This document shows, piece after piece, positions 12,097 to 47,343 of a DNA stretch of 59,294 bases. How positions within the stretch are numbered: the first letter of the stretch is position 1; every line of letters begins with the position of its first letter. Location: positions 1-59,294 of the forward strand of contig JAZFUU010000009.1 of NCBI GenBank assembly GCA_036447375.1, in the 5' to 3' direction. The notes under the pieces were generated by a model that worked only from the letters and a program-made list of their open reading frames with translations, was not told where the DNA came from and searched no databases. The stretch comes from Myxococcota bacterium (GTDB taxonomy: Bacteria; Myxococcota_A; UBA9160; SMWR01). Position numbers and translations under genes: made by a program.

Positions 12097-12146
12097 CGCC
12101 CACTCCCTTGATCGATTCGCCGAAGAACCGAGTAGGATACACGACG

Positions 12147-17235: not shown

Positions 17236-17297
17236 ATGCGCCACGGCATCCGAGTGCGCCACGGGAACAGACCCCTCGGGCAGCGGCGAGGAGCAGC

Positions 17298-19867: not shown

Positions 19868-19917
19868 ACCGCGCGCTCGGCCGCGAGCGCAGACACTTCG
19901 CCATCGGAGGCCCCCCA

Positions 19918-21330
19918 ATGGAAAACGAACTCTGGAAATCGAGCGCCGCGGATCTGGCGCAGGCCATTCGAGGCCGCCGCGTCTCGGCCCGCGAGGTGGT
20001 CCAGGCCCATCTCGACCGGATTGCCGCGGTGAACGACGCCGTCAACGCCATCACTGTCGTCCTCGCCGACCGCGCCCTCACCGAAGCCGACGAGGCCGAC
20101 GCGGCCGTGGCACGCGGAGGCGACCTGGGACCCCTCCACGGGGTTCCCATGACCGTGAAAGAGAATCTCGATCTCGCCGGTTCGGCCACCACCCAGGGTG
20201 TTGTCGCCATGAAGGACGCCGTCCCAGCCATCGATGCCCCACACGTTGCCCAGCTGCGCCGGGCCGGTGCGATCCCGATCGGACGCACCAACCTTCCGGA
20301 TTTCGGTTTGCGCTGGCACACGGACAACGCGCTGCGCGGGGCCACGCGCAACCCGTGGGATCCGGCGCGCACTCCCGGCGGATCGAGCGGTGGCGACGCC
20401 GTGGCTCTCGCCACCGGCATGACGCCCCTGGGAAACGGCAACGACTACGGCGGGTCCCTGCGGATTCCGTCGCAGTTCTGTGGCACCGCGGCGATCCGGC
20501 CCACCCTGGGCCGCGTCGCCCAGGCTTCGGCCCTCGCGCCCACCGAGCCGGCTTTCACGGTCCAGCTCTTCCAGGTTCAGGGACCCATGGCGCGCCACGT
20601 CGGCGACCTGCGCCTGGCCCTGGCGGCCATGAGCGGCCCCGATCCGCGAGACCCGTGGTGGACCCCGGCGCCCCTCGAAAGTCCGGCGCCCAGCACTGCG
20701 CTCCCGCGGGTCGCCGTCGTCGCCGACCCGGCGGGCTTCGGAGTGCACGAAGACGTGGAGTCGGGCGTGCGTCAGGCCGCCGAGGCTCTCGCCGACGCGG
20801 GCTACTCGGTCGACGAGGTCGAGCCTCCGGTGGTTCGCGAAGCCGCCGAGCTCTGGGGCGCGCTCGTGTTTGCCGAGATCACCACGACCATGCTTCCCCT
20901 CATGCGGCCGCTGCTCAGCGAAGGGGCCGCGACCTTCATGGATCTCTCGCTCCCCCAGCTGTCCGAAGTCGACCTGGCGGGTTTCATGTCCGCGCTGGCG
21001 GCTCGTCAGGCGATCGCTCGCCAGTGGAGCGAGTTTCATACGCGCTATCCCCTGGTGCTCGGTCCGGTGTCGACGCAACCCGCCTTCCCCGTCGGGCGCG
21101 ACGTCGAGAGCGCCGAGGCGGTTGCCGACCTGGCCGGGAGCCTCGCCCTGGTTACGACGGTGAACCTGCTCGGCCTGCCCGCCGTGGCGGTTCCTGTCGG
21201 CGTCGTCGACGGGCTTCCCCAGGGCGTGCAGATCATCGGCGATCGCTATCGGGAAGACCTGTGTCTGGATGCGGCCGATGCCATCGAGACCCGGCTCGGG
21301 GTCGTCACACCGATCGATCCGACGGGTTGA
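19918..21330 (+). CDS. Amidase (amidase-signature family)
   Basis: ATG 19918. The signature is GVPMTVKENL...TPGGSSGGDAVALATGM. Confidence 0.9.
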   Translation: MENELWKSSAADLAQAIRGRRVSAREVVQAHLDRIAAVNDAVNAITVVLADRALTEADEADAAVARGGDLGPLHGVPMTVKENLDLAGSATTQGVVAMKDAVPAIDAPHVAQLRRAGAIPIGRTNLPDFGLRWHTDNALRGATRNPWDPARTPGGSSGGDAVALATGMTPLGNGNDYGGSLRIPSQFCGTAAIRPTLGRVAQASALAPTEPAFTVQLFQVQGPMARHVGDLRLALAAMSGPDPRDPWWTPAPLESPAPSTALPRVAVVADPAGFGVHEDVESGVRQAAEALADAGYSVDEVEPPVVREAAELWGALVFAEITTTMLPLMRPLLSEGAATFMDLSLPQLSEVDLAGFMSALAARQAIARQWSEFHTRYPLVLGPVSTQPAFPVGRDVESAEAVADLAGSLALVTTVNLLGLPAVAVPVGVVDGLPQGVQIIGDRYREDLCLDAADAIETRLGVVTPIDPTG

Positions 21331-21343
21331 GAACGGATCCACG

Positions 21344-22531
21344 TTGGATCTGCGCTACTCGGAATCGGACGAACAGTTTCGCGGGGAGCTGCGGTCCTGG
21401 CTGCGGGACGCGGTCAGCGCCCACGGCCCGCCCCCGCCCCACCACGACTGGCCCGCACGACGCGCCTACGACACGGGTTGGCAGCGAAAGCTCCACGACG
21501 CCGGCTACGCCGGCATCCACTGGCCCCGGGAATACGGGGGCCGAGACGCGTCCCCCAGCGAGCAGCTCGTCTACTTCGAGGAAATCGCGCGCGCCAACGC
21601 CCCTTATGTGGGCATCAACTTCGTGGGACTGCTCCACGGCGGACCGACCCTGATCGTAGAGGGAACCCCCGAGCAGAAGCAGCGACACGTGCCCTCCATC
21701 CTGCGCGGCGAACAGACGTGGTGTCAGGGCTTTTCGGAGCCCGAGGCGGGCTCCGATCTGGCGAGCCTGCGGGCGCGCGCCGAGCGCGACGGCGATCACT
21801 ACGTCGTCAGCGGGCACAAGATCTGGACGAGCTATGCGCAAGTCGCCGACTACTGCGAGCTGCTGGTGCGCACGGATCCCGACGCCCCCAAGCACAAGGG
21901 CATCACCTGGCTGATCATGCCGATGGACCTGCCGGGAATCGAGATCCGCCCCCTGAAGACGATCGCCGGAGAGGGAGAGTTCAGCGAGCTCTTCCTGGAG
22001 AAGGTGCGAATCCCGGTCGAAAACCGGGTCGGCGCCGAGAACGACGGCTGGCGTGTCACCAATGTAACGCTTCGTTTCGAACGCGGTGCGGCGTTCGCCA
22101 GCGAGATGTACCAGCTTCGCGAGCACCTGGCCGAGATCAAGGCCGTGGCGAGTCGCGTCACCCGGCACGATGCGCGCGCTTGGGACGACACGGCGTTGCG
22201 GCGGGAGCTCGGCCGGCTGCAGGCCGAGCTCGACGCGCTCTGGGCGATGGTGAAGCTCTCGGTCTCCGAAGCCAGCGAGGCCGGGGTCCCCGGGGTCGGA
22301 AGCGCCGCGGTCAAACTCTTCTACACGGAATTAGCCCAGCGGATCAGCGACGTCGCCATGCGCGTGCTCGGGCGCGCCGGCCTCTCCCGTTCGGACGTGG
22401 CCGATCTTCCCAGCCAGCGCTTTCTGACCAAGATGTTGATGTCTCTCAACCTGACCATCGCGGCGGGGACGTCTCAGATCCAGCGAAACATCATCTCGGA
22501 GCGGATCCTCGGCTTGCCGAGGGGACGTTGA
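21344..22531 (+). CDS. Acyl-CoA dehydrogenase, large-subunit type
   Basis: IHWPREYGGRDAS..CQGFSEPEAGSDLASL..TIAAGTSQIQRNIISERILGLP. The start is uncertain. TTG 21344 is the first in-frame start after the amidase stop. Confidence 0.85.
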   Translation: MDLRYSESDEQFRGELRSWLRDAVSAHGPPPPHHDWPARRAYDTGWQRKLHDAGYAGIHWPREYGGRDASPSEQLVYFEEIARANAPYVGINFVGLLHGGPTLIVEGTPEQKQRHVPSILRGEQTWCQGFSEPEAGSDLASLRARAERDGDHYVVSGHKIWTSYAQVADYCELLVRTDPDAPKHKGITWLIMPMDLPGIEIRPLKTIAGEGEFSELFLEKVRIPVENRVGAENDGWRVTNVTLRFERGAAFASEMYQLREHLAEIKAVASRVTRHDARAWDDTALRRELGRLQAELDALWAMVKLSVSEASEAGVPGVGSAAVKLFYTELAQRISDVAMRVLGRAGLSRSDVADLPSQRFLTKMLMSLNLTIAAGTSQIQRNIISERILGLPRGR

Positions 22532-22564
22532 AGCGAAAGACGAGAGCGGGCGAGGAAACCGGGG

Positions 22565-23548
22565 TTGGATTTCCGAATCAATGCCGACCAGGAAGCCCTT
22601 CAGCAAGGGGTTCGCCGCTTCTGCGAAGGTCGGATCGCGATCGACCAGCTGCGCGAGCTCGAAGAGAAGGAGGCGTTCGATCGTTCCCTCTGGGACGACC
22701 TCGCAGAAATGGGGATCTTCCGGCTCCGGATGCCCGAGACGGCCGGCGGCCTGGGACTGAGCAGTGCCGATGCGGTGCTGGTCTTCGAAGAGCTCGGTCG
22801 GAGCCTGGCCCCGGGACCGCTGGTCTGGAGCCATCTCGCCGCGCCCTGGATCGAAGGCGCGGGAACCGGCGAGGTCGTGGTGGGCGGACTCGACCTGATC
22901 AGCGCCGCACCCCGCCCGTACCTGGTCGAGTACTGGGCACATCTGGATGTCTTGCTCTTGCTCCGCCCCGAGGGTCTCTTTCGCGTCGACCCGAAAACAC
23001 TCGACGCCCAGCCCATCGCCACACCCCTGGACCCCCTCACCCCGATGCACCACGTCACTTCCCTACCTCGGGGCGAGCGCCTCGCGGAATCCGACGTGGC
23101 TCGGCGGCTGTGGCTGGAGGGAGCCGCCCTCGTATCGGGCCAGCTGCTCGGAATCGCCGAGGCAGCCCTCGAGCGGGCACTCGACTACGCGAAGAAGCGC
23201 GAGCAATTCGGACAGGTCATCGGCTCATTTCAGGCGATCAAACACCTGTGTGCCGACATGTTCGTTCGACAGGAGGTGGCGCGCGCGGGCGCCTATGCAG
23301 CGGGGGCCACCCTCGATCATCCGGAGGTGGGTGACCTGGAGCGCGCCGTCGGAAGCGGCAAGATCACCGCCGGCGAGGCCGCGATGAAGAACGCTCGCGC
23401 GTGCATCCAGATCCACGGCGGCATGGGCTACACCTGGGAGGTACCCGCCCACTACTTCCTCAAGCGAACCTGGGTGCTCGAATCGACCTTCGGAACCGGC
23501 GACGAGCACGCAGAGCGCATCGCCCTGCGGATCGAATCCGGCACCTGA
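22565..23548 (+). CDS. Acyl-CoA dehydrogenase, small-subunit type
   Basis: TTG 22565 is preceded by GAGGAA. 327 aa. The C-terminus has IQIHGGMGYTWEVPAHYFLKR. Confidence 0.85.
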   Translation: MDFRINADQEALQQGVRRFCEGRIAIDQLRELEEKEAFDRSLWDDLAEMGIFRLRMPETAGGLGLSSADAVLVFEELGRSLAPGPLVWSHLAAPWIEGAGTGEVVVGGLDLISAAPRPYLVEYWAHLDVLLLLRPEGLFRVDPKTLDAQPIATPLDPLTPMHHVTSLPRGERLAESDVARRLWLEGAALVSGQLLGIAEAALERALDYAKKREQFGQVIGSFQAIKHLCADMFVRQEVARAGAYAAGATLDHPEVGDLERAVGSGKITAGEAAMKNARACIQIHGGMGYTWEVPAHYFLKRTWVLESTFGTGDEHAERIALRIESGT

Positions 23549-23557
23549 AGCGCCGCT

Positions 23558-24373
23558 TCACGAGCCCGTCGGCTTCTCCGACTTCTTTCCGGTGTACTCG
23601 CAGAACGCGCCGGGCACGACCACCCGGTAGCGCGATTCTTCCACGCCGACGTCCCGCAGGGCGTGGAGAATCGTATCCGGCGAGGCGCTCTTCTCCACGG
23701 TATCCCAGTAGTAATCCATCAGAACCTTCGCATCGCGACTCCGGGTGAAGAGCAGTGTCATCCCCGGAATCACACGATTCCACGCGAATCGCGTCAGCCG
23801 GTGGCCCAGTGGGGAAGTCGGAAGGTGCCCTTCCAGGATCCACAACCTGCCTCCCGGTTTGAGTACCCGGAGGTACTCGCCAAAGGCGACGGCCAGGTCG
23901 GACACGTGCCGCAGGGCGATGCCCATCGTCACGAAATCGAAGTGGTCGTCCGCAAACGGAAGACCCTCGGCCACGCCTCGGACCACGGGTCCGCGAAAGA
24001 CCTTTTGCGCCTGTCCAAGCATTCCGCGGTTCGGGTCGACGCCGATCACGGATCCCTCCGGCCCGACCAACTTCGCCGCCCCACGGGCCACGGCCGCTGT
24101 GCCGATCGCCACGTCGAGAACCTTCATCCCGCGGCGCAGCCCCGCCCGGCGCAGGGACAGACGGCGATACAGGAGGCCCCCGTTGAAGAAGAGCTTCTCG
24201 ATGGTGTCGTAGTGCTGCGCCGTCTTGTCGAAGAGATCCATGACGTAGCGGTGCCGGTTCGAATCGGTCTCGTAGTAGTCGGTCAGCGGGGAATGGGGCG
24301 GCACCCTCTGGCGTCCCCGCGTCGCCCCCTTCGGGTCGCCCTCCTGAATCGGGCCCGTCTGAATCGTATCCAT
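23558..24373 (-). CDS. Class I SAM-dependent methyltransferase, UbiE/MenG-like
   Basis: YDTIEKLFFNGGLLYRRL...VLDVAIGTAAVA...VIGVDPNRGML...LKPGGRLWILE parallels the UbiE layout. ATG 24373 is preferred; the longest ORF starts at 24439. Confidence 0.85.
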   Translation of the reverse strand: MDTIQTGPIQEGDPKGATRGRQRVPPHSPLTDYYETDSNRHRYVMDLFDKTAQHYDTIEKLFFNGGLLYRRLSLRRAGLRRGMKVLDVAIGTAAVARGAAKLVGPEGSVIGVDPNRGMLGQAQKVFRGPVVRGVAEGLPFADDHFDFVTMGIALRHVSDLAVAFGEYLRVLKPGGRLWILEGHLPTSPLGHRLTRFAWNRVIPGMTLLFTRSRDAKVLMDYYWDTVEKSASPDTILHALRDVGVEESRYRVVVPGAFCEYTGKKSEKPTGS

Positions 24374-24519
24374 CGTCCCCCCCGCGGAAGGCCAGGCTCC
24401 GCAAGTCGCGATGCTAACAAGTCGAGTCCGGCGAGACACTTCGCCGACCGAATCCGCGCGGCCCGCTCGGCATCGACCTTTGTTGCGGCCAGGATGCGAA
24501 GGGGGTACCCGTTCCGGCG

Positions 24520-25221
24520 GTGCACAGCTCGCCCTCCCAGCGATCGCCTTGGCAGGGGGGACTCGAGTTCATCCTGATCGCGATCGCCGGGGTGATGCTC
24601 GCGTCCCTGGGAGAGCGGGTCCTGGTGGCGATCGCGCGAGCGCCGGCCGGGTGGCCGATTCCGGTGGCGCTGGTTCCGGTGGCGCTGGGACTGGCAGTCG
24701 GAGTGCTGAGCGCCGATTTCACTTCCGGAGCCCTCCACTGGTTTTGCGATCGCTTCTTCCGAAAAGACACCCCGTTGCTGGGCCGATTGCTGATCCAACC
24801 GTTCCGCGACCACCATGTCGATCCACAGGGGATCGTCCGCCATGGCCTGTTGGAGCTGCACGGCAACAGCTGTATCCCGGTCATCGCGTTTCTGGCGGTT
24901 GCCCGCTGGGCCGACCTACCCGACCCCCGAAACCCAGGATCGCTCCTGGTGCACGTGTGGATCTTCGTCTTCGCCTCCAGTGCGCTGCTGACCAATCAGT
25001 TCCATCTGTGGGCCCATGCCGGGAAGGTGCCGCCGGGCGTTCGCTGGCTCCAAAGGCAGGGCCTGATTCTCACGCCGGCCCGGCACGCCGTGCACCACCG
25101 CGGCGGCTTCAGTCAGAGTTATTGCATGACGACAGGATGGTTGAATCCCCTCCTCGACCGGATCGAATTCTTTCCGCGCATCGAACGCGGGATTCGAGGC
25201 CTGGCGCGGTGGCGGAGGTGA
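24520..25221 (+). CDS. CarF/TMEM189(PEDS1)-family lipid desaturase homologue (plasmanylethanolamine desaturase-like)
   Basis: 233 aa and multi-TM. The His-rich signature is HWFCD, FRDHHVDPQGIVRH, QFHLWAH and RHAVHH. The GTG 24520 start is uncertain; an ATG near 24595 is possible. Confidence 0.8.
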   Translation: MHSSPSQRSPWQGGLEFILIAIAGVMLASLGERVLVAIARAPAGWPIPVALVPVALGLAVGVLSADFTSGALHWFCDRFFRKDTPLLGRLLIQPFRDHHVDPQGIVRHGLLELHGNSCIPVIAFLAVARWADLPDPRNPGSLLVHVWIFVFASSALLTNQFHLWAHAGKVPPGVRWLQRQGLILTPARHAVHHRGGFSQSYCMTTGWLNPLLDRIEFFPRIERGIRGLARWRR

Positions 25222-25223
25222 GC

Positions 25224-26330
25224 ATGAAACCCAGCAGCCCGGAATTTCGCCTGGGCGAGGGGATGATCAGTGGAGTTCTCTCGGCCACTCTGGGGACTCT
25301 CGGATTCGGGGCGGTGATCTGCCTGCTGTTTCCCAGCCTGCTCACCACCCCCGACATGCGTGCGATCTATCCGATGGAGTGGGTGCGCCGCCTGATTCAG
25401 TTCGTGCTCGTAACGGCCTTCGCCTTCGGCGTTCTCAGCATCGTCCTCACCCGACGCCGAGTCCTGGGCTTGACGGGCATCGCCCTGTCGCTGGGCGCGA
25501 CCCTCCTGGGCGGCTCGAAAGTGCCGGTCTCGGCACCGGTCGCGACGGCGTCCTACATCGGATTGGATTGGTTCATTCTGAATCTGTTCTTCCTGGCATT
25601 GGTGTTCGTGCCGATGGAGCGCGCCTTCGGGCGCCTCACGGAGCAACGCGTGTTCCGAAAGGGGTGGCAGACGGACATCGCGCACTTCCTGGCCAGTCAT
25701 ATCCTGGTCCAGGTGTCTGTCCTGCTCACCATGATTCCTGCGGCCCTCTTCTTTCGATGGGCCGTCGATGCCGAGTTCCAGGGAATCGTGGCGTCGCAAC
25801 CCGTTCCCTTACAGTTCATCGAAGCGCTGGTGCTGGCCGACCTCTTCGCGTATTTCTCGCACCGCCTGTTTCACTCGATTCCCTTGCTGTGGCGTTTCCA
25901 TCGGATCCACCACTCGAGTGAAACCATGGACTGGCTGGCCGGTTCCCGCCTGCATCTGGTCGACATCGTCGCGACCCGCGCCGTCGCCTTCGTCCCGCTC
26001 TACGTCATGGGGTTTTCGACGGAGGCCCTCGTTCCCTACCTGATCTTCGCGTCGATTCAGGCCGTCTTCATCCATGCGAACGTCGGTTTTCGATTCGGTG
26101 GGATCCGCCATCTACTGGTGACGCCGCAGTTCCACCATTGGCATCACACCGCCCAGAGGGAGGCTCTGGACAAGAATTTCGCCGTCCACCTTCCGCTGAT
26201 CGACTGGCTCTTCGGGACCCACCATCTTCCGAAGGATCAGTGGCCCCAGGTCTACGGAATCGCCGGCAGCCCGGTACCCGACGGGTACTGGAAGCAGCTG
26301 TGGATCCCATTCTCCCGAACGAACGGCTGA
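25224..26330 (+). CDS. Fatty-acid hydroxylase (sterol desaturase) superfamily membrane enzyme
   Basis: ATG 25224 lies 2 nt after the upstream stop. There is an N-terminal hydrophobic extension. The His boxes are HRLFH, HRIHH and FHHWHH. Confidence 0.88.
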   Translation: MKPSSPEFRLGEGMISGVLSATLGTLGFGAVICLLFPSLLTTPDMRAIYPMEWVRRLIQFVLVTAFAFGVLSIVLTRRRVLGLTGIALSLGATLLGGSKVPVSAPVATASYIGLDWFILNLFFLALVFVPMERAFGRLTEQRVFRKGWQTDIAHFLASHILVQVSVLLTMIPAALFFRWAVDAEFQGIVASQPVPLQFIEALVLADLFAYFSHRLFHSIPLLWRFHRIHHSSETMDWLAGSRLHLVDIVATRAVAFVPLYVMGFSTEALVPYLIFASIQAVFIHANVGFRFGGIRHLLVTPQFHHWHHTAQREALDKNFAVHLPLIDWLFGTHHLPKDQWPQVYGIAGSPVPDGYWKQLWIPFSRTNG

Positions 26331-26409
26331 GAGACCCGGAACCCGGATTTCGGTTGTCGCCACGACGCCCGTCGCGCATCATCATCGCAATCACACGAGG
26401 AGAGCCCCC

Positions 26410-28053
26410 ATGGCCGAGATCGACGGCGGACGCATCGCAGCGCGACAGCTGAAAGCGGCGGGAGTGGACACGATCTTCGGCGTGGTCGCGGGGCCGATGA
26501 TCGAGATCTTTGCGGGGGCCCAGGCGGAGGGTCTTCGGGTCGTGGGCTGCCGCCACGAGGAGAACGCGGCGTTCATGGCGTCGGCCTGGGGCTACCAGAA
26601 GCGCAAGCCCGGGGTCGTCGTGGCGGGTTCCGGTCCCGGCATGACCAACACCGTCACGCCGATGTACGTCGCCACCGCCAGCGCGATGCCGCTGGTCGTG
26701 CTGGGCGGCAGCACCTACGGCGCCATGCGCGGCATCGGCGGATTCCAGGAAGCAGACCAGATGGCCTTTGCCGCGCCGGGCTGCAAATGGACCGCCCAGG
26801 TCGACAGTACGCAGCGCATCGGAGAGCTCGTGCATCTGGCGCTGGGAAAAGCGGTGAGCGGCCGCCCCGGCGCCGTGTACCTGGACTTCCCCGGCCACCT
26901 GGTGGGCCAACGGGTCGCCGAGGAAGTCGTCCCGGTGCGACGAATGCCCGAGGTCGCGCGGCCTCATCCGGATCCGCAGGCCATCGACCGGCTCGCCGAT
27001 CTGCTGGCGGAAGCCGAGCGCCCTCTCCTTCTGATCGGCAAGGGCGCTGCCTGGGCCGACGCGGGGGCCTCCCTGACGCGACTGGTCGATCGCGGCATTC
27101 CCTACCTGACGTCCCCGATGGGTCGCGGAGTTGTCGCCGACGACAATCCCCACTTCGTGAATGCCGCCCGCTCCGCCGCGCTGGCCGGTGCCGACGCGAT
27201 CCTGATGGTGGGTGGTCGCTTCAACTGGATCTTCGGCTTCGGACGCGCTCCCCGCTATCGGGAAGACGTGCGCATCGCGCAGATCGATATCGAGGCCGAG
27301 GAGATGACGAGTGCTGCCGACGTCGAGCTGGGAATCGTGGCCGATGCCGCCGTCGCTGTGGAAACGCTGTGCGACGCCCTCGAGGGGCGTAAGCTCGCCA
27401 CGGCTCGGTCGACCTGGCTCGCCGACCTGCGCGCGCAACGCGAGCGCAACGAAGTGGAGATCGCCAAGGCGAGCCAACTCGATTCGGTGCCGATCAACCC
27501 CTATCGGCTGGTGCACGAAGTGCGCGAGGCGGCGGGCCGGGACACCACATTCTCCGTCGACGGCGAAACCATCATGGGTATCTGCCGCGTTCTGCTTCCC
27601 AGCTATCGGGCGCGCTCCCGACTCAATGCGGGAACAACCGGGTGTATGGGCACGGGCGTTCCCTACGCGATCGGGGCCAAGCTCGCCCATCCCGAACGAC
27701 CCTCGCTGGCGGTGCTCGGCGACTACGCTTTCGGCGCCGCCGCGATGGAAGTCGAAACCTGCGCTCGGGTCGGCGCGAACGTGGTCTTTGTCGTCGCCAA
27801 CAACGAGGGCATCGCGGGCCATCTGATTCAGGACCACATGCTGCCGCCGGACTCACCGCGGATCGCGAGCTTGCTGCCCGCGTCCTACGAGAAGATGGTC
27901 GAGATGGTCGACGGCCACGCCGAGCGGGTGGACCGACCCGAGGAGATCCGTCCGGCCCTGGACCGGGCCCTCGCCGCGGACCGGGTGGCGCTGGTGCACG
28001 TTCGGGTGGACCCCAAGGCCACGCGCATCAGCGGGGGAAACTACCTCCAGTAA
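26410..28053 (+). CDS. ThDP-dependent enzyme, oxalyl-CoA decarboxylase / 2-hydroxyacyl-CoA lyase-like
   Basis: AGGAG lies upstream of ATG 26410. The N-terminal PYR domain has CRHEENAAFMASAWGY..GSGPGMTN. The ThDP box is LGDYAFGAAAMEVETCARVGANVVFVVANNEG. Confidence 0.88.
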   Translation: MAEIDGGRIAARQLKAAGVDTIFGVVAGPMIEIFAGAQAEGLRVVGCRHEENAAFMASAWGYQKRKPGVVVAGSGPGMTNTVTPMYVATASAMPLVVLGGSTYGAMRGIGGFQEADQMAFAAPGCKWTAQVDSTQRIGELVHLALGKAVSGRPGAVYLDFPGHLVGQRVAEEVVPVRRMPEVARPHPDPQAIDRLADLLAEAERPLLLIGKGAAWADAGASLTRLVDRGIPYLTSPMGRGVVADDNPHFVNAARSAALAGADAILMVGGRFNWIFGFGRAPRYREDVRIAQIDIEAEEMTSAADVELGIVADAAVAVETLCDALEGRKLATARSTWLADLRAQRERNEVEIAKASQLDSVPINPYRLVHEVREAAGRDTTFSVDGETIMGICRVLLPSYRARSRLNAGTTGCMGTGVPYAIGAKLAHPERPSLAVLGDYAFGAAAMEVETCARVGANVVFVVANNEGIAGHLIQDHMLPPDSPRIASLLPASYEKMVEMVDGHAERVDRPEEIRPALDRALAADRVALVHVRVDPKATRISGGNYLQ

Positions 28054-28756
28054 AACGCCGGGCCCCGGGCGGACCACTTCGAGAAAAGCGACTTCCGGGC
28101 GGATCCTGAACCCAGCCGGCCGACTGCTCCCAGGCATCGTCGTACACCAGATCTCCGATCGGGCGTCGCCGCAGCGGCCCGTGGCGACCCGCCGGACGCC
28201 CCAGGGTAATCGTCAGCGAGATCCCCGCCTGCTCCGGGATGTCGAGCAGTGCCTTCAGCCGATCCTCCACCGAGAGATGCCAGACACTGAAGCAGGCGCC
28301 GTAGCCCAGGGCCCGGGCCGCCAACAGCAGGTTCTGACAGGCGGGATAGATCGAGGCACCTTCGTAGGGGTTGGGCGGATGAAAGCGCAGGAGGCAGGCC
28401 AGGATCACCACCGGAATGGACTCGAACCCGTCGACGAATTGTTGCATCGCGCGCGCCGAGCGGGCCTTCGGGGAGTTGGGCTCCGCGCCGGACCCCCGCT
28501 CCCAGCCCTCGTCGGAGGATTTTCGGGCCCAGTTGTTCCGAAAACTCTCGGCGAGCAGGGCCTTGGCCGGTTTCGCGCGCTCCCCGTCGCGCAGCGTCAC
28601 GAAACGAAACGGCTGGCTGTTCGATCCCGATGGGGCCCGTGTCGCCGCGTACAGAATGCGACCGAGATCCCGGTCCGGGATCGGGTCTGGGAGATAGCGA
28701 TGGATGGTTCGAGCCGTGGCCATCACCTCGAGTACTGCTTCGACTGCGTCCGCCAT
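28028..28756 (-). CDS. Nitroreductase-family protein
   Basis: ATG 28756 is preceded by GGAGGTG. The N-terminus reads MADAVEAVLEVMATARTIHRYLPDPIPDRDLGRILYAATRAPSGSNSQPFRF. It overlaps the convergent ThDP gene by 26 nt. Confidence 0.85.
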   Translation of the reverse strand: MADAVEAVLEVMATARTIHRYLPDPIPDRDLGRILYAATRAPSGSNSQPFRFVTLRDGERAKPAKALLAESFRNNWARKSSDEGWERGSGAEPNSPKARSARAMQQFVDGFESIPVVILACLLRFHPPNPYEGASIYPACQNLLLAARALGYGACFSVWHLSVEDRLKALLDIPEQAGISLTITLGRPAGRHGPLRRRPIGDLVYDDAWEQSAGWVQDPPGSRFSRSGPPGARRFTGGSFPR

Positions 28757-28791
28757 GGGCACCTCCAACGCTCGGGCAGTATAGAGACACC

Positions 28792-30564
28792 TCACTCGAT
28801 CTTGTCGAACTGGCGGCGCGAAGCGAGATCGTCCGGGTCGAGACGCAGGGCCTCCAGGAACAGGGCGCGCGCGCCGGGCAGATCGCCGCGCCGAACCTGG
28901 ATCAGGCCCAGGTTGCGCACCACTTCCGCGGAATCGGGTCGCAAGCGCCTGGCCTCGCCGAACGCGGCCTCGGCAGCGACGAGATCGCCCCGAGCCAGCA
29001 GCACCTTGCCGAGCCCGTGGTGCGCCCCGAAATGCTGCTGGCTCGAACGGATCGCGCCCCGATAGTGAAGCTCGGCGGGCTCCAACTGCCCCGCCTGGGC
29101 GTTCAGAACCCCGAGGTTGAAATGCGCCCCCGCGTGATCGGGCTCCGCCGCGAGGGCCGCCAGGAACGCGGCGCGGGCTTGTTCCGGACGCTTCAGAACC
29201 AGCAACACAGCTCCACGGGTCACCGCAATGTTGGCCGAGTCGGGACTGCCGCGCTGCGCCGCATCGTATTGCGCGAGGGCCTGCCCGAAGCGGCCCTCCT
29301 CGGCCAGAGCCATTCCCAGTGCGTGATGGGCGTCGGGCGAATCCGGGTCGAAGCGCAGCCACTGGCGGGCAAAGGTCTGGTCGTCGCGGAAGTACTGCGC
29401 CCGACCCAGGCTCACCCCCGCGGCGGCTAGAATCGCGCAGAGGCCGACGACTACGGCAAGCCTCCGCAAGCGCGGGTCGTGCCAGCGCGACGACACGAGG
29501 CCGGCGGCGATCGCCGGCAGGCCCAGGGTTCCTAGGAACGCGTAACGCTCCGCGAAGGGTGTTTCCTGCACGAGCCAGTTCGCCGTCGGGAGTTGGGTGG
29601 CGAGCATCCAGCCCAGCCAGAATCCGACGGCGCGGACGGGGGGGGCACCCACGCGCCGGCACGCCCCCGCCAGCGCGACCAGAACCAACGCCACCACAGT
29701 CAGCCGCCACGGCGAAATCCAGATCAGCAAACGGGGTTCGTACACGAGTTGCACGAACGGCACGATCGAAACCTGAAGCAGGTAGAGGTAGGAGAGAACT
29801 GGCAAGATGGGATCGCCGACCAGGGCGAGGCGAGTTTCGGTGTGCCCGGCCAGGGCGTACCGCACTCCGAGATAGATCAACAAGATGGCGACGCTTCCCG
29901 CATGACGCCTCGCCCAGAACCCGGGTCGGGCCATCGAGCCCGCCTCGGGCGGATCCGAACCCACGCGGCAAAGATCCGCCCATACGAACAGCAGCGGAAC
30001 GATCACGGACTGTTCTTTCGCAAAGATCGCCACCGCGAAGGCGGTGCAAGCGACGGCGCGGCGACCGCGCAGCCACGCGAGGGTCGCCGCGAGAATCAGG
30101 GCGCTGGCCAGTGCCGTATCTCTGCCCAGGATCGGATAGACACACGAGGAAGCGACCGGATGAAGTGCAAAAAAACCGGCGGCCCATGCGGCGGGAGTTC
30201 GGCGCACGTCGAACCCCCGACTGCGAAGCAACAGGTAGGCGAGCCAAGCCACCGCGCCCATCACCGCGATGTTGACGGCCCGGAAAGCCGCGGGAATGTC
30301 CCCGTGCAGCGCCTTCTGGCTCAGATACGAAGCCCGCATGACAGGCCGGTAGTACGGCAGACCCTTCACATGCGGCTCGCGGAACACCCGCGCGATGTCC
30401 GATAGGTTTCGGGGTCTCGGCTCGGAGACGATCACGCCCCGATCGTCGTAGACGAAGTCGTTGCCCAGAGAGGGCAAGTAGACCGCCGCGACGAGCAGGA
30501 CCAGCAGCCACCCGGTCGGAATCCCTCGGAGCCCTCGAGCCCAGGGCAGACGCCAAATTACCAC
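28792..30564 (-). CDS. Polytopic GT-C-like (PMT_2/TMTC-like) membrane protein with C-terminal TPR repeats
   Basis: The N-terminus has LPSLGNDFVYDD (a first-loop acidic motif) followed by ~10 hydrophobic segments. The C-terminal ~200 aa are TPR-like repeats (HHALGMALAEEGRFGQALAQY...). Confidence 0.8.
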   Translation of the reverse strand: MVIWRLPWARGLRGIPTGWLLVLLVAAVYLPSLGNDFVYDDRGVIVSEPRPRNLSDIARVFREPHVKGLPYYRPVMRASYLSQKALHGDIPAAFRAVNIAVMGAVAWLAYLLLRSRGFDVRRTPAAWAAGFFALHPVASSCVYPILGRDTALASALILAATLAWLRGRRAVACTAFAVAIFAKEQSVIVPLLFVWADLCRVGSDPPEAGSMARPGFWARRHAGSVAILLIYLGVRYALAGHTETRLALVGDPILPVLSYLYLLQVSIVPFVQLVYEPRLLIWISPWRLTVVALVLVALAGACRRVGAPPVRAVGFWLGWMLATQLPTANWLVQETPFAERYAFLGTLGLPAIAAGLVSSRWHDPRLRRLAVVVGLCAILAAAGVSLGRAQYFRDDQTFARQWLRFDPDSPDAHHALGMALAEEGRFGQALAQYDAAQRGSPDSANIAVTRGAVLLVLKRPEQARAAFLAALAAEPDHAGAHFNLGVLNAQAGQLEPAELHYRGAIRSSQQHFGAHHGLGKVLLARGDLVAAEAAFGEARRLRPDSAEVVRNLGLIQVRRGDLPGARALFLEALRLDPDDLASRRQFDKIE

Positions 30565-30593
30565 CGGAATTCGCGTCCCCTAGCCCGCACGAT

Positions 30594-32027
30594 TCATGAT
30601 CCTTTGCGCAGCCAGGTCAGACGCCCCCGACACAGGGTCGCCGCGACCTGATCGCTGGTAAGCGATCGCCGAGCTGCCGACCAGGGTCGGTCGAGCAGGC
30701 ACAGATCGGCGGATGCAGCGACGGCGATCTGTCGAGGCGGCGCACCCGGCGCCTTCGCGGGTGACGTAAACAGCCCGAGGGCCCGCTCGGGGGTGAGCGC
30801 TTCATCGCCAGCCAGCTCGAGACCCGCCGCGCTGCGGCGATCGACGGCCGCCCGCATGGCGAGCCACGGGTCGGAATTGCCAAAGGGGGCATCGGTTCCG
30901 CCTCCCAATGGGACGGCCGCGTCGAGGAACCCCCGGCCGCGGTAGAGCCACGGCCGATCTCGAGGGTCGACTTCCACCGCATAGCGATCGCCGCGCTCGA
31001 AAATGAAATTGGGTTGAGTGACAACGGTGACTCCCACATCGGAGAGCAGGGCCATCGCATCCGGAGGCACCACCGCCGCGTGCTCGATTCGATCTCCCGC
31101 GAGGCTGCCGGCGGAGGCCACGGCGGCCGACGCCAGCACCAGCTCGGCGCGGGTGACGCAATGAACCGCCACGGGCCGACGCTGGCGGTGGGCGACTTCG
31201 ATGGTTTCGACCAGGGCTTCGAAGGGCGGCAGGTCCGACTCGGCGAGCCAGATCTTGACGGCGCCGCGTTCGACCTCGGGATGCGACGATACCGGCAACG
31301 ACGACTTTCCCATCACCAGAAGCTGTTGCCGCAGCTCGCCCTTCTCGATCGCGTCGACGAACGCCGCCAGCTCGGATCGGCCGTTCGCCGGGGTCGCGTC
31401 GGTGACGCCCGTCACGCCAAAACGCGCGAGTTGCCGACCGACCCGGGCGAAGCACGGCCGTGTCGTGTCGCCGGACTCGATCTGCTCACGAAGCCACGTG
31501 TCGAGGCGAAGCAGGCGTCCGGTCGCGCGACCCGCGTCGTCACGCTCGACGCCTCGGGCGTCGACACCCCGGTCCAGACCCAGCCGGGCGACGCCGGCGG
31601 AGTTCAGGATCCACATCGCCCCGCTTCGATGTTGGATTCGCAGCGGAGTGTCCGGTGTGATTCGATCGAGAGCCACGCGGTCGAGCGCCCCCGCCACCGA
31701 CTCGCAGTAGCCCACGCCGCGGATCCAGCCGGCGTGCGGCGCCCCGCCGATCGGGGGCTCCGCCCTGGCCGAGGCCAGGGCTGCGGCCAGGCCCTCCGCG
31801 TCGCGAACCGCGGGCGGCCCGCATACCACCGACGATTGAGCCGCCGCCATCGCGAAGAGGTGGACGTGGTGGTCGTGCAGACCCGGCAACAGCGCGCCCC
31901 CCGCGGCGTCCAAAACCCGCTCGCCTCGCAGGGCCGAAAGACCGCGGCCAATTTCGGAGATGCGACCGTCGCCAATCCGCACGTCGACGCCGTCGCGTCC
32001 CGCCAGCTCTGCAGACCGGATCAGCAT
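30594..32027 (-). CDS. Amidohydrolase-family (Amidohydro_3-like) metal-dependent hydrolase
   Basis: LLPGLHDHHVHLF is the HxH metal motif, with GGTDAPF near the C-terminus. Length is 477 aa. The start overlaps the upstream stop by 7 nt. Confidence 0.85.
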   Translation of the reverse strand: MLIRSAELAGRDGVDVRIGDGRISEIGRGLSALRGERVLDAAGGALLPGLHDHHVHLFAMAAAQSSVVCGPPAVRDAEGLAAALASARAEPPIGGAPHAGWIRGVGYCESVAGALDRVALDRITPDTPLRIQHRSGAMWILNSAGVARLGLDRGVDARGVERDDAGRATGRLLRLDTWLREQIESGDTTRPCFARVGRQLARFGVTGVTDATPANGRSELAAFVDAIEKGELRQQLLVMGKSSLPVSSHPEVERGAVKIWLAESDLPPFEALVETIEVAHRQRRPVAVHCVTRAELVLASAAVASAGSLAGDRIEHAAVVPPDAMALLSDVGVTVVTQPNFIFERGDRYAVEVDPRDRPWLYRGRGFLDAAVPLGGGTDAPFGNSDPWLAMRAAVDRRSAAGLELAGDEALTPERALGLFTSPAKAPGAPPRQIAVAASADLCLLDRPWSAARRSLTSDQVAATLCRGRLTWLRKGS

Positions 32028-33457
32028 CGCGGTCCCAACTCCGCCAGAACCTCATCGGTGTCGGCGCCCAACGGAGCCGCCGAACCCTCGACCGATCGTG
32101 CCCGGGGAGGTGACACGCGCGCGCACTCGTCGCCGGCAACCACTTCCCAGATCGTTGATCGCGGCGCTCGCAGGGCTCGCGGCGCTTGTGTTGTTCGCGG
32201 TGCTTGCGTTGTTCGCGGTGCTTCCGGCACTCCCGCCGGGTCGACGCGCCGCACCCGGGCCGGCTCGGACTCCGGCCCCGTCTCTGCCCCATACGACAGC
32301 GCGTGAGCGGCGACCTCGCATAGGGAGAGGTCGAGAAGCTCCCCGCCCCCGGCGCGCCAGGACTGCAGCGCGGCCGCCGCCGCGTGCAGACCCGTGAGCG
32401 GATCCGCAATGGCGTCGCCGCAAAACACCGGGGGGTCGGCATCCGCCGCGACCGCCCGGGACAAACCGGCGGCAACCGCCGCGTCGTCGCCAAAGGCGAC
32501 CCAGTCTCCACCGGGCGCAGCCCGTCCGTAGCCGGTGATGCTCACCCAGGTGAGACCCGGTCGGGTCGCCAGCAGCCGCCGAACATCGATGCCGAGTTGG
32601 GCCAGCGCCCGGGGACGCGCGCTGTCCACAACGATATCGGCCGACTCGAGCAGGCGGCGCAGCCATCGGCGACCGGTTTCGGACGCCAGATCCAACGCCA
32701 CACTCTGCTTACCAAAATTCAAGAGATCGAAGAAGCGCGCCGGGCCGCTGCGCGCGCCGTCGGGGCGGGCGCTGCTTTCGATCTTGACCACCCGGGCACC
32801 CGCTCGCCCGAGAAGGTGCGCGCACAGCGGACCGGCCCACAGAACCGAAAGGTCGACGACGCGGGGAAAGTCGCCGGGTCGTCGGACGAGCCGCGGTCCC
32901 CGGGAACAAACTCGGCGCCAGACGGGCGCCGGCGAGGGTCCAGAGACGGCGACCGCCACCGGAAGACCGAGGAGCCGAGCCCGGGCGACCACCTCGTCGG
33001 CGGCGCGGGAGCGGACCCGATCTGCGATGAAATCCCACGGATCGTCGGCGGTGTCGCCACCGAGCCACGCCGGCAACAGATCGCGATCGTCGGGGCGCGC
33101 CAGATTGACGGCGATCCAACCGTCGCGGGTGGGCAGCAAGCGGCAGCTTCCACCGGGAGAGATGCGGCCCCGGCGAGACAGTCCGAGAATCGCCGCCCGC
33201 TCCCCGAGCAACGCGGGCCCATCGAGCCCGGGCGCCCAGCGGTCCCCAGCCAGATGGGCCAAGGCCTCGACACAGCCACGGGCGCAGTTGGCCAGCGGCC
33301 CTCGGACCAGCCGCGGCGGCCCATCGGAGCATCCGCTCAGTGCCATGGCCCCCGAGCGCGCCCACTCGATCGCGGGGTGGCTGGCGCGTTCGCCGTCGGA
33401 GCCGGCGGCCTCGGGCCGAACCGGAATACCGAGAATTTCCGCGGCGTAGCCGAACAT
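32021..33457 (-). CDS. Family III CoA-transferase-like protein with atypical (permuted-looking) domain order and a repeat-containing linker
   Basis: ATG 33457 (MFGYAAEILG). The canonical N-motif RVVDLSVLWAGPLCAHLLGRAGARVVKIES only appears after ~170 aa. The catalytic context is GDAIADPLTGLHAAAAAL. The C-terminus has APLGADTDEVLAELG. Confidence 0.78.
   Translation of the reverse strand: MFGYAAEILGIPVRPEAAGSDGERASHPAIEWARSGAMALSGCSDGPPRLVRGPLANCARGCVEALAHLAGDRWAPGLDGPALLGERAAILGLSRRGRISPGGSCRLLPTRDGWIAVNLARPDDRDLLPAWLGGDTADDPWDFIADRVRSRAADEVVARARLLGLPVAVAVSGPSPAPVWRRVCSRGPRLVRRPGDFPRVVDLSVLWAGPLCAHLLGRAGARVVKIESSARPDGARSGPARFFDLLNFGKQSVALDLASETGRRWLRRLLESADIVVDSARPRALAQLGIDVRRLLATRPGLTWVSITGYGRAAPGGDWVAFGDDAAVAAGLSRAVAADADPPVFCGDAIADPLTGLHAAAAALQSWRAGGGELLDLSLCEVAAHALSYGAETGPESEPARVRRVDPAGVPEAPRTTQAPRTTQAPRALRAPRSTIWEVVAGDECARVSPPRARSVEGSAAPLGADTDEVLAELGPRC
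32186..32221. repeat. 18-bp tandem duplication inside a CDS
   Basis: CTTGTGTTGTTCGCGGTG / CTTGCGTTGTTCGCGGTG. On the coding (minus) strand this gives APRTTQ-APRTTQ, followed by degenerate APRALR-APRS. Confidence 0.85.
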
Positions 33458-33480
33458 GGATCTGGGGACCTGGATCCCGG

Positions 33481-35083: not shown

Positions 35084-35085
35084 GC

Positions 35086-47316: not shown

Positions 47317-47343
47317 TCCCGGACGGGAGCCGCCGGTCGCAAC

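Follow-up and report, generated by a model that had tools for sequence, protein, structure and literature searches.

A CarF-like desaturase gene and an FA_hydroxylase-superfamily gene form a putative two-gene lipid module in a replaceable cassette next to an acyl-CoA lyase gene

The window, the whole 59,294-nt stretch of Myxococcota DNA that was analysed, contains three co-directional genes, termed genes 1 to 3, and a divergent methyltransferase gene (Table 1). Gene 1 and gene 2 are separated by a gap of 2 nt, and the ribosome-binding site of gene 2 (GGAGG, 25214-25218) lies 5 nt upstream of its start codon, within the 3' end of gene 1; this arrangement suggests translational coupling. The gap between gene 2 and gene 3 measures 79 nt and includes an AGGAG, while the 3' end of the Nitroreductase-family gene overlaps that of gene 3 by 26 nt. 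Pfam searches match gene 1 to Lipid_desat (PF10520, E 2.4e-45), gene 2 to FA_hydroxylase (PF04116, E 1.7e-27, residues 201-332, preceded by a hydrophobic N-terminal region), gene 3 to TPP_enzyme N/M/C, and the methyltransferase to Ubie_methyltran (E 1.2e-29). The family matches of these genes, in Pfam and, for gene 3, against solved structures, are strong and far above chance. An earlier note on this DNA had placed the genes, both gaps, and the AGGAG of gene 3 exactly where they are found; its three family assignments agree with the profile searches, and the motifs it cited, HRLFH / HRIHH / FHHWHH in gene 2 and LGDYAFGAAAMEVET...NNEG in gene 3, are present in the translations.

Table 1. Features of the locus, in window positions.
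Feature	Position	Strand	Remarks
Gene 1, CarF/PEDS1/FAD4-family (PF10520) membrane di-iron lipid desaturase	GTG 24520 to TGA 25219-25221	+	233 aa; start codon uncertain by a few codons
Gene 2, FA_hydroxylase-superfamily membrane di-iron enzyme	ATG 25224 to TGA 26328-26330	+	368 aa
Gene 3, ThDP-dependent acyl-CoA lyase, HACL/S-OXC clade	ATG 26410 to TAA 28051-28053	+	547 aa
UbiE/MenG-like class I SAM methyltransferase	23558..24373	-	Divergent from gene 1, 146 bp upstream
Acyl-CoA dehydrogenase-like gene	22565..23548	+	327 aa; Pfam Acyl-CoA_dh_N + Acyl-CoA_dh_1; left flank of the cassette, conserved core cluster
Nitroreductase-family gene	28028..28756	-	Convergent with gene 3; Pfam Nitroreductase E 3.5e-22; start coordinate inferred from the 242-aa product
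Variable 2.8-kb cassette (methyltransferase + gene 1 + gene 2)	23562..26347		blastn against L161/L164

Two contigs of a sister lineage, L161 and L164, align collinearly with the window over 17069-23561 and 26348-32057, with 88-91% nucleotide identity (blastn). In the slot between these segments, an unrelated 413-aa Amidohydro_2 gene takes the place of the methyltransferase and genes 1 and 2, and gene 3 is retained along with all flanking genes. In contig L166 the cassette is present although the flank has 96% identity to that of L161/L164, revealing a presence/absence polymorphism at one slot. The acyl-CoA dehydrogenase-like gene on the left flank is syntenic in L161, L164, L166, and L170. The cassette is accessory and replaceable, and it is separable from gene 3.

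In L165, where gene 3 is 83% identical, it directly follows the thiolase pair, and relatives lacking genes 1 and 2 conserve 62 of the 79 nt that precede gene 3. The Nitroreductase-family gene adjoins the gene 3 orthologue in L161, L162, L163, and L170 and stands one gene further in L165, the two genes overlapping or lying about 25 nt apart in relatives. Conservation of gene order in relatives had been set beforehand as a refutation test of the operon reading; linkage of gene 3 to genes 1 and 2 is confined to the species of the window (L170, L171; 98% nucleotide identity), and the operon interpretation fails because this linkage is not conserved. No terminator-like or sigma-70-like site was detected in the 79-nt gap ahead of gene 3, and in the window's own species gene 3 may be co-transcribed with genes 1 and 2 by read-through.

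The methyltransferase scores best with the UbiE model of NCBIfam, at 108 bits and below the cut-off of 216. Its orthologue is present with the cassette in L166, L170, and L171, and in other lineages no methyltransferase near the gene 1-gene 2 pair exceeds 29% identity to it, none being orthologous. It accompanies genes 1 and 2 only within the window's genus-level group and would be a lineage-specific passenger or accessory.

In a search of the PDB, the best solved structures for gene 3 are the HACL/S enzymes 8vzj and 8vzd (386 and 385 bits), followed by RuHACL (342 bits), oxalyl-CoA decarboxylases (OXC, 278-305 bits), and acetolactate synthases (about 190 bits), which upholds the earlier view of gene 3 as OXC/HACL-like rather than acetolactate-synthase-like. 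It remains below every curated equivalog cut-off in NCBIfam, that of OXC included. Residues E50 and F112-Q113 and the C-terminal motif RxSGxNYLQ are conserved in its family. In three distant relatives (L173, L174, and L175/176) a formyl-CoA-transferase-like (Frc-like) gene lies 17-20 nt after the gene 3 homologue, aldehyde dehydrogenases are found near it in L165 and L175, and the whole window is rich in acyl-CoA genes. Gene 3 is a member of the flanking core acyl-CoA cluster rather than of the cassette. As a separate observation, in the Rokubacteria locus L024 a distant HACL/ALS-like ThDP gene with 27% identity to gene 3 lies on the other strand, roughly 0.9 kb away from gene 2.

Wider sampling covered 160 loci from other lineages, comprising 80 gene-1-anchored loci from genomes and 80 gene-2-anchored loci from metagenomes. 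An orthologue of gene 3 or of the methyltransferase was nearby in 0/80 of the former and 0/80 of the latter. Gene 2 adjoins gene 1 in 13 of the 58 gene-1-anchored loci with enough flanking sequence, and the reciprocal adjacency occurs in 12 of 39 gene-2-anchored loci. The pair occurs in seven phyla (Myxococcota/'Deltaproteobacteria', Rokubacteria, Gemmatimonadota, Planctomycetota, Alphaproteobacteria, Acidobacteriota, and Verrucomicrobiota), and a CarF-like gene is the sole recurrent neighbour of the gene 2 family. Spacing is usually tight or overlapping: the 2-nt gap recurs in L170, and the two genes overlap by 1 nt in L167-L169 and by 13 nt in L166. Additionally, the 682-aa protein P0380 is a Lipid_desat-FA_hydroxylase-Lipid_desat fusion whose central domain shares 35% identity with residues 100-364 of gene 2; it is a single observation, a one-member cluster from one contig. 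Since adjacency is conserved in seven phyla and one natural fusion exists, genes 1 and 2 can be regarded as a functional unit, a putative two-gene membrane-lipid module present in at least seven bacterial phyla. For each of the two genes, about 70-80% of the homologues lack the other as a partner, so that each enzyme can presumably work alone. The earlier claim of one unit holds for the gene 1-gene 2 pair and is lost for gene 3 and the methyltransferase as members.

Gene 1 scores 138 bits against the NCBIfam CarF equivalog, whose cut-off is 500. Functional residues named for mouse PEDS1 include H96, D100, F118, H121, H131, and H187; in gene 1, H73, D77, F95, H98, H99, H108, H162, H166, H189, H192, and H193 fit the mouse PEDS1 residues, with identical spacing from H73 to H108 and H162 aligning with H187 at a 2-residue offset. 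Gene 1 possesses all nine PEDS1 histidines together with the Asp and Phe, H108 corresponding to mouse H131, the PEDS1-specific ninth. Among gene-2-linked CarF-like proteins, 17 carry H at this ninth position, 9 carry R, 6 carry Y, and one each has Q and S, whereas unlinked CarF-like proteins have H in 54/57; the variability suggests that the linked clade is free of the constraint seen in PEDS1. In a neighbour-joining distance tree of about 165 columns, the linked sequences cluster away from Leptospiraceae and most Myxococcota homologues. Because the linked relatives vary at the ninth histidine, plasmalogen synthesis by gene 1 is only possible. The Bradyrhizobium CarF homologue is non-complementing, and this protein and plant FAD4 show that PF10520 members need not be PEDS1.

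Gene 2 combines an OlsE-like body (residues 107-366, the extent of the NCBIfam OlsE alignment, at 115 bits against a cut-off of 475) with a conserved N-terminal region of about 100 aa containing predicted helices. Its family exceeds 3,000 members, the best 120 matches being full-length and at least 58% identical, and one homologue is fused to a Rieske domain. Gene 2 is an OlsE/AGMO-like di-iron enzyme from a large uncharacterised family. A link to fatty acid 2-hydroxylase, raised previously, finds no sequence support: no solved structure matches gene 2 at E <= 1, and a crystal structure of the yeast fatty acid 2-hydroxylase exists.

Taken together, the block is probably a juxtaposition of two units, a cassette with a gene 1-gene 2 core and gene 3 within an acyl-CoA catabolic cluster. 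We infer that the products of genes 1 and 2, as integral-membrane di-iron oxygenases, would act together on the same membrane lipid and oxidise a hydrocarbon chain close to the head group; gene 1 would desaturate it, and gene 2 would hydroxylate it or carry out a related O2-dependent reaction. As a committed guess for this genome, gene 1 would introduce a near-head double bond of the PEDS1 type (vinyl-ether) or the FAD4 type, and gene 2 would hydroxylate the same lipid. Independently of both, gene 3 would cleave 2-hydroxyacyl-CoA, or less likely oxalyl-CoA, to formyl-CoA and an aldehyde, in a conserved cluster that also encodes ChsH2-like and thiolase-like proteins, an amidase, two acyl-CoA dehydrogenases, a nitroreductase, and CoA-transferases.

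Alternative accounts differ in the lipid acted upon and in the number of genes involved. Tentatively, the linked CarF-like clade could be a third PF10520 class, neither PEDS1 nor FAD4, desaturating an acyl, aminolipid, or sphingoid chain near the head group, with gene 2 hydroxylating or desaturating the same lipid in OlsE-like fashion and an SCD-type desaturase and assorted SAM methyltransferases recruited in some lineages. The variable ninth position and the separate clustering are consistent with this, as are OlsE as the best full-length curated match of gene 2 and the Rieske-domain fusion. SCD-like PF00487 desaturase genes adjoin the pair or gene 1 in L168/L169, L126, and L061, 5 loci, L141 among them, have a similar desaturase-like gene downstream of gene 2, and L167, L139, L114, L071, and L074 have non-orthologous methyltransferases as immediate or near neighbours. 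However, gene 1 of the window retains the complete PEDS1 signature, the tree is a distance tree of few columns, and the accessory genes occur sporadically and could be neighbours by chance.

Ether-lipid homeostasis is an unlikely role for the pair, with gene 1 as a true plasmanylethanolamine desaturase making plasmalogens and gene 2 as an AGMO counterpart that hydroxylates 1-O-alkyl lipids at C1' and thereby cleaves the ether. PEDS1 and AGMO act on the same alkyl chain, each at C1', and this shared target would fit the pairing. The eight core histidines, H108, and the D100 and F118 equivalents of gene 1 agree with such a role, and gene 2 shares the HHSSE and TPxxHHxHH...DKN...FGT motifs with an approximate human AGMO sequence, identity being 29% over 153 aa in that comparison, which serves as a lead only. 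Against it stand the variable ninth position in linked proteins, the CarF equivalog score far under the cut-off, and OlsE rather than AGMO as the closest curated model to gene 2. Plant and alphaproteobacterial homologues are not PEDS1, reports of full aerobic plasmalogen pathways come mainly from Myxococcota, and AGPS, FAR, and ElbD genes are absent from the window, none being recurrent near the pair.

The earlier proposal that all three genes and the methyltransferase form one operon, passing ether or 2-hydroxylated lipid chains as CoA esters to a HACL-type lyase for one-carbon shortening (alpha-oxidation), is highly improbable: co-direction, short gaps without a terminator signal, the order retained in L170 and L171, the truly HACL/S-like gene 3 with F112-Q113 as in Dhc/TbHACL/S, and the distant L024 gene near the pair speak for it, but the sister lineage keeps gene 3 without genes 1 and 2 at the same slot, the linkage is kept in 0/160 distant loci, most of the gap before gene 3 is conserved where genes 1 and 2 are absent, the recurrent partner of gene 3 is the Frc-like CoA-transferase, the cassette has no acyl-CoA synthetase or lipase to free and activate a lipid-bound chain, and gene 2 has no detectable similarity to the solved fatty acid 2-hydroxylase.

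The two-unit reading leaves the gene 1-gene 2 pair as a candidate two-enzyme lipid-tailoring module that is apparently undescribed and moderately interesting, and each component can be compared with known systems. Gene 3 resembles DhcHACL/S (8vzj), TbHACL/S (8vzd), and RuHACL (6xn8) in its end-to-end alignment, the catalytic E50, F112-Q113, and the GDxAFG...NN ThDP box, but differs at the C-terminal lid, where TbHACL/S has R540, K541, Q543, and W547 and the gene 3 family has R539 followed by xSGxNYLQ. Relatives of gene 3 pair with an Frc-like CoA-transferase as OXC does with Frc, whereas the window's gene 3 has lost the adjacent CoA-transferase, the best paralogue being only 34-36% identical.

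Gene 2 shares FA_hydroxylase superfamily membership and full histidine boxes with the ornithine-lipid hydroxylase OlsE of Rhizobium tropici and with animal AGMO, its identity to AGMO being about 29% in the catalytic core, as compared with an approximate AGMO sequence. It differs in its distance below the OlsE cut-off, in the additional conserved N-terminal region, and in belonging to a family with no characterised member. Gene 1 shares PF10520, a similar size, and the nine histidines with interacting Asp and Phe with CarF/PEDS1 (TMEM189) of M. xanthus and animals. Its clade, however, is defined by linkage to an FA_hydroxylase gene, which the CarF/PEDS1 literature examined does not mention, and ether-lipid precursor genes are absent near gene 1. 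Plant FAD4, the delta-3-trans desaturase of phosphatidylglycerol, and the Bradyrhizobium homologue have PF10520 and the eight-histidine core in common with gene 1. FAD4-type proteins lack the ninth histidine and usually carry Arg there, whereas the window's gene 1 has His; the nine gene-2-linked relatives with Arg at this position come from soil metagenomes.

The gene positions, strands, gaps and divergent methyltransferase described in the earlier note were all reproduced, and Pfam profile searches showed its family assignments to be right for gene 1 (a CarF/PEDS1/FAD4-family desaturase), gene 2 (an FA_hydroxylase-superfamily enzyme) and gene 3 (a ThDP-dependent lyase). GGAGG lies 5 nt before the start of gene 2, within the 3' end of gene 1, and the 79-nt gap between gene 2 and gene 3 contains AGGAG, in a window with a G+C content of about 66%. 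The nearest NCBIfam models scored below their cut-offs, with 138 bits against 500 for CarF (NF045946) in gene 1, and 115 bits against 475 for OlsE (NF052566) in gene 2, where residues 107-366 were aligned.

Features of the window and of related loci, with the contents of the variable slot beside gene 3
Feature	Location	Strand	Assignment or content
Methyltransferase	23558-24373	-	Ubie_methyltran (Pfam); divergent, 146 bp from gene 1
Gene 1	GTG 24520 to TGA 25221	+	Lipid_desat PF10520, Pfam E 2.4e-45
Gene 2	ATG 25224 to TGA 26330	+	FA_hydroxylase PF04116, E 1.7e-27, residues 201-332
Gene 3	ATG 26410 to TAA 28053	+	Three ThDP-enzyme domains (Pfam)
Acyl-CoA-type genes, example ranges	2931-6026, 10879-12096, 12108-13451, 16435-19867, 21269-23548, 32021-33625, 34996-36591, 44873-48942, 50453-51262
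CoA-transferase behind gene 3 homologue	L173:8661-9875, L174:8676-9890, L175:8669-9883
Slot, L170/L171			98% nucleotide identity to window, same species; cassette, complete window order
Slot, L166			Cassette, 84-85% identical to the window's; 296-nt ACAD flank 96% identical to L161/L164
Slot, L161/L164		-	Amidohydro_2; flanks 88-91% nucleotide identity

The proposed operon of gene 1, gene 2 and gene 3 (the trio) with the methyltransferase was examined from three anchors, namely an alignment-based scan on gene 1 with one genome per species (80 loci, with flanks of at most 10 kb to either side), an alignment-based metagenome scan on gene 2 (80 further loci), and the contigs that carry the closest relatives of gene 3. 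Homologues of gene 2 were directly adjacent in many of the gene-1-anchored loci, and a gene 3 orthologue or the methyltransferase was present in none of these 80. In the 80 metagenome loci a CarF-like gene frequently adjoined gene 2; neither a gene 3 orthologue nor the methyltransferase did so in any of them. ThDP genes occur near the pair (gene 1 plus gene 2) in 3 of 80 loci, L016, L024 and L052, roughly the chance level; they were rejected as counterparts of gene 3, being distant family members, for example of the PRK08266 type. The methyltransferase was also discarded as a conserved third member: L166, L170 and L171 alone have orthologues, and the methyltransferases that other lineages carry close to the pair share at most 29% identity with that of the window and fall into different subfamilies.

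The closest relatives of gene 3, with 93% amino-acid identity, lie on contigs L161 (GCA_022571825.1) and L164 of a sister lineage, in the order ChsH2-like, thiolase-like, amidase, ACAD, ACAD, Amidohydro_2 (-), ThDP enzyme, nitroreductase (-), TPR protein (-) and Amidohydro_3 (-). Their DNA aligns collinearly with window positions 17069-23561 and 26348-32057, at 88-91% identity, with homology ending and resuming exactly at the borders of the segment that holds the methyltransferase, gene 1 and gene 2 (the cassette, 23562-26347), and 62 of the 79 nt 5' of gene 3 lie within the shared flank. Gene order in relatives, the check named in the earlier note, is therefore not kept, as the sister contigs retain gene 3 without the methyltransferase, gene 1 and gene 2. 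Comparison of the slot contents of L166 with those of L161/L164 indicates that the cassette and the amidohydrolase gene are alternatives within one species-level lineage; gene 3 is constant. Assembly GCA_044345325.1 has the cassette and GCA_022571825.1 lacks it. L165, whose gene 3 homologue is 83% identical, has the thiolase pair followed directly by gene 3, and L161 and L173 have non-orthologous amidohydrolases adjoining gene 3. The search for mobile-element signs at the cassette borders returned only short, chance-level repeats, with no transposase near the cassette in the window; a promoter and terminator scan and RNA folding of the 79-nt gap gave no sigma-70-like or terminator-like site and a fold z-score of 0.27, compatible with co-transcription of gene 2 and gene 3 as well as with separate transcripts. 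With 0 of 160 loci and the sister slot as evidence, the linkage is not conserved past trivial vertical inheritance. The trio, which as proposed would have linked ether or hydroxy lipids to alpha-oxidation in a new bacterial pathway, is a lineage-specific juxtaposition, the link to gene 3 being an accident of gene order in one lineage, and the coupling of the pair to gene 3, the methyltransferase and alpha-oxidation is not supported.

Other differences from the sister lineage lie downstream. A second indel places window 28767-28807 against L161:6858-8043, and L161/L162 carry an extra 290-aa gene, absent from the window, between the nitroreductase and the TPR membrane protein, with a weak PEP-CTERM sorting-domain match in L161. 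The nitroreductase-family gene is convergent with gene 3, their 3' ends overlapping by 26 nt (window 28028-28053), and it adjoins gene 3 in relatives too, with an overlap in L170 and a spacing of about 25 nt in L161-L163.

The conserved feature is the gene 1-gene 2 pair. Where flanking sequence suffices, gene 2 adjoins gene 1 in 13 of 58 gene-1-anchored loci and gene 1 adjoins gene 2 in 12 of 39 gene-2-anchored loci, with gene 1 mostly upstream on the same strand and the two occasionally convergent. Spacing is tight: the genes lie 2 nt apart in the window and L170, and they overlap by 1 nt in L167-L169 and by 13 nt in L166. The pair spans seven phyla, with taxa taken from record titles: Myxococcota/'Deltaproteobacteria', Rokubacteria, Longimicrobiales/Gemmatimonadota, Planctomycetota, Alphaproteobacteria, Thermoanaerobaculia and Pedosphaera. 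Carriers of the pair include chromosome-level MAGs, for example OZ252253.1. Clustering of ORFs around gene 2 homologues identified the CarF-like gene as the sole recurrent neighbour (30 of 95 loci), and within 8 kb of 34 pair loci no other neighbour recurred across phyla beyond synteny among closely related Rokubacteria. The search with gene 1 of 1.84 billion representative proteins gave 2,038 relatives. One of them, P0380 (682 aa; L177:5731-7779 on a 9.7-kb contig), combines Lipid_desat, FA_hydroxylase and Lipid_desat domains (Pfam), its middle part being 35% identical to gene 2 residues 100-364; as a single instance, it supports coupling of the pair without proving it. The coupling of gene 1 to gene 2 put forward in the earlier note is thus borne out by adjacency across seven phyla and by one fusion protein. 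The literature searched contained no account of a CarF-like and FA_hydroxylase pair, apparently an undescribed conserved pairing of two known enzyme families.

Neither desaturase domain of P0380 has the PEDS1-specific ninth histidine, and a GDSL lipase gene lies divergently upstream of its gene. L017 (DASRWT010000086.1), labelled as archaeal 'Candidatus Nitrosocosmicus sp.', has the pair and shares synteny with L006, L007 and L083, which are Rokubacteria loci; this contig is probably mis-binned.

Gene 1 exhibits the residue signature of PEDS1. H73, H98, H99, H162, H166, H189, H192 and H193 are invariant in an alignment of 25 homologues, D77 and F95 are invariant in the alignment as well, and the spacing of a ninth histidine, H108, from H73 equals that of mouse H131 from H96. 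H73, D77, F95, H98/H99, H108 and H162 correspond to mouse H96, D100, F118, H121/H122, H131 and H187. What we take to be the human PEDS1 sequence aligns with gene 1 in the same residue pattern and serves as a lead only. Eight histidines are common to PEDS1 and FAD4, and the ninth (CarF H113, mouse H131) is conserved in PEDS1 and absent from FAD4; its mutation abolished CarF function and left mouse PEDS1 with 7% activity, and in mouse PEDS1 mutation of D100 abolished activity and that of F118 left about 6% (PMC8960569, PMC9131029). Plant-type FAD4 usually has Arg at the ninth position, in contrast to His108 of gene 1. Given this full residue signature, gene 1 could by its sequence be a plasmanylethanolamine desaturase, which forms the vinyl ether.

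Three lines of evidence argue against annotating gene 1 as PEDS1. The ninth position varies among linked CarF-like proteins, those with an adjacent gene 2 homologue (histidine in 17, arginine in 9, tyrosine in 6, glutamine and serine in one each), and is histidine in 54 of 57 unlinked ones. The linked proteins also cluster, in a rough distance tree, apart from Leptospiraceae, Nannocystis and most Myxococcota sequences. Finally, alphaproteobacterial and plant homologues are, as published, not PEDS1, and complete pathways for aerobic plasmalogen synthesis occur mainly in Myxococcota (PMC13012113). Of the genes that could supply 1-O-alkyl precursors (AGPS, FAR, GNPAT or ElbD), none was found in the 59-kb window and none recurred within 8 kb of the 34 pair loci. 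Caution is warranted against labelling all bacterial PF10520 proteins plasmanylethanolamine desaturase.

Gene 2 represents a very widespread family without a characterised member, with more than 3,000 matches, the best 120 of which are full-length and at least 58% identical. Its PF04116 score is 96.9 bits against a cut-off of 31, with HX3H, HX2HH and HX2HH boxes present, and H213, H217, H226, H229, H230, H304, H305, H307 and H308 are invariant, as are H244 and H284. Identity to a sequence that we take to be AGMO is 29%, over the 153-aa catalytic core only. No chain among PDB sequences matched gene 2 at E <= 1, and its AlphaFold2 model (mean pLDDT 66.8, pTM 0.59) yielded only meaningless transporter matches (E > 2) in Foldseek against the PDB, allowing no conclusion from structure. 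The yeast alpha-hydroxylase of the Scs7p/FA2H type has been crystallised (PMC8960569), and neither the PDB sequence search nor Foldseek detected similarity to it; the suggested link of gene 2 to fatty acid 2-hydroxylase is not supported by sequence.

In the most probable reading, the products of gene 1 and gene 2 both act on one membrane lipid, oxidising it close to the head group. A new, non-ether activity of the pair is a possibility that we entertain tentatively; if true, it would be a new activity in the PF10520 family, for which, to our knowledge, only two reactions are known so far. With similar reserve, the linked CarF-like proteins may be proposed as a third class beside PEDS1 and FAD4, whose OlsE/AGMO-like partner would help to make a novel head-proximal oxidised membrane lipid. 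Such a class might produce, for example, a vinyl-ether lipid bearing hydroxyl or methoxy groups, or a hydroxy-enoyl lipid, with some lineages adding an SCD-type desaturase or SAM methyltransferase to the building or remodelling, and its hosts would be mostly uncultured, widespread soil bacteria (Rokubacteria, Gemmatimonadota, Myxococcota, Planctomycetota, Acidobacteriota and Verrucomicrobiota). The reading of the pair as ether-lipid enzymes, PEDS1 plus an AGMO-like partner, is rather unlikely; if true, aerobic plasmalogen-type chemistry would reach well past Myxococcota and the pair would point to sources of environmental ether lipids. The remaining probability falls to other or independent functions of the two genes. 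Together, the conserved pair, the variable PEDS1-specific histidine and the fusion protein provide a testable lead into bacterial lipid chemistry.

Occasional neighbours and fusions are taken as hints of a lipid-tailoring context and not as module members. These include SCD-type PF00487 desaturases near the pair or gene 1 (L168/169, L126 and L061), a similar desaturase-like gene that lies 3' of gene 2 in five loci, including L141, and non-orthologous SAM methyltransferases near the pair in L167, L139, L114, L071 and L074. Furan-fatty-acid logic, combining methylase, desaturase and oxygenase, is an analogy only, as we know of no homology to UfaM, UfaD or UfaO. P0214, a gene 2 homologue of 501 aa, carries a C-terminal Rieske [2Fe-2S] domain, which suggests that Rieske-type ferredoxins may donate electrons to the gene 2 family.

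At L167:5263-11635 roughly 3 kb separates the pair from a lipid cluster of aryl-polyene-like type, containing ApeP-like and ApeI-like genes, a KAS, two ACPs, acyltransferases, a glycosyltransferase and a LolA-like gene, and at L168/L169 it lies about 2 kb from a transposase. P0486 (477 aa) has a partial patatin-like phospholipase segment before its CarF-like domain, which may be a genuine fusion or an artefact of gene calling; a genuine fusion would hint at a glycerolipid context.

Gene 3 stands apart from the pair as an HACL/S-like ThDP enzyme. Its best solved structures in the PDB are 2-hydroxyacyl-CoA lyase/synthases (8vzj, 386 bits; 8vzd, 385; RuHACL 6xn8, 342), followed by OXC (278-305 bits), the actinobacterial 2-hydroxyisobutyryl-CoA lyase (200) and acetolactate synthases (about 190). 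The guess that gene 3 is OXC/HACL-like and not acetolactate-synthase-like accordingly stands, at 386 bits (8vzj) against about 190. Beyond these nearest structures, gene 3 has the ThDP N/M/C architecture, the catalytic Glu50 and the Phe-Gln/Glu carbanion-site pair as F112-Q113, with E50 and F112-Q113-E114 invariant across the family, whose best 120 matches are at least 74% identical. In HACL/S enzymes E50 is the catalytic glutamate, and Q113 adjoins a conserved catalytic water in DhcHACL/S and TbHACL/S (PMC11271303), the corresponding water in M. extorquens OXC being held by Y134/E135 (PMC8411744). We infer that the F112-Q113 positions are equivalents of the OXC Tyr-Glu pair. Assignment as oxalyl-CoA decarboxylase was rejected, because both OXC equivalog cut-offs were missed and F112-Q113 replaces Tyr-Glu: the nearest curated model, PRK09259, gave 395 bits against 557, and TIGR03254 gave 371 against 739. 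An exact-sequence look-up for gene 3 found no record. We assign gene 3 to the HACL/S group, in which it forms a new branch, and not to OXC.

The window, over 144-59294, is unusually dense in paralogues of acyl-CoA metabolism. Acyl-CoA dehydrogenases number at least six, enoyl-CoA hydratases four and acyl-CoA synthetases two, and among the family III CoA-transferases a single ORF has two domains of this kind; also encoded are a ChsH2-like and SCP-x-type thiolase pair, SDRs, a SnoaL-like protein and a luciferase-like monooxygenase. The best reading of gene 3 places it in this acyl-CoA catabolism gene set. Aldehyde dehydrogenase genes near its homologue in L165 and L175 fit lyase chemistry. At 144-2273 on the minus strand, a 709-aa ORF fuses a KaiC-like ATPase domain to a response-regulator receiver domain.

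At greater distance, the gene 3 family includes three independent members with 75-77% identity (L173, Myxococcota; L174; L175/176), each followed after 17-20 nt by a 404-aa family III CoA-transferase, whose best curated model is formyl-CoA transferase at 215 bits, under the cut-off. None of the window's CoA-transferases is orthologous to this usual partner, the best being 34-36% identical. The gene 3 family forms an uncharacterised, well-conserved branch of HACL/S that has an Frc-like partner and a C-terminal lid of its own, and is of interest for one-carbon biocatalysis. Compared with the C-terminal lid of TbHACL/S, where R540, K541, Q543 and W547 contact acyl-CoA, it keeps only the Arg (R539), its conserved tail reading RxSGxNYLQ, and compared with MeOXC (Y134/E135), gene 3 has F112-Q113 and no Tyr-Glu pair. 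The gene 3 homologue and its Frc-like gene are an uncharacterised HACL/S two-gene module, whose order mirrors the classical OXC-Frc arrangement.
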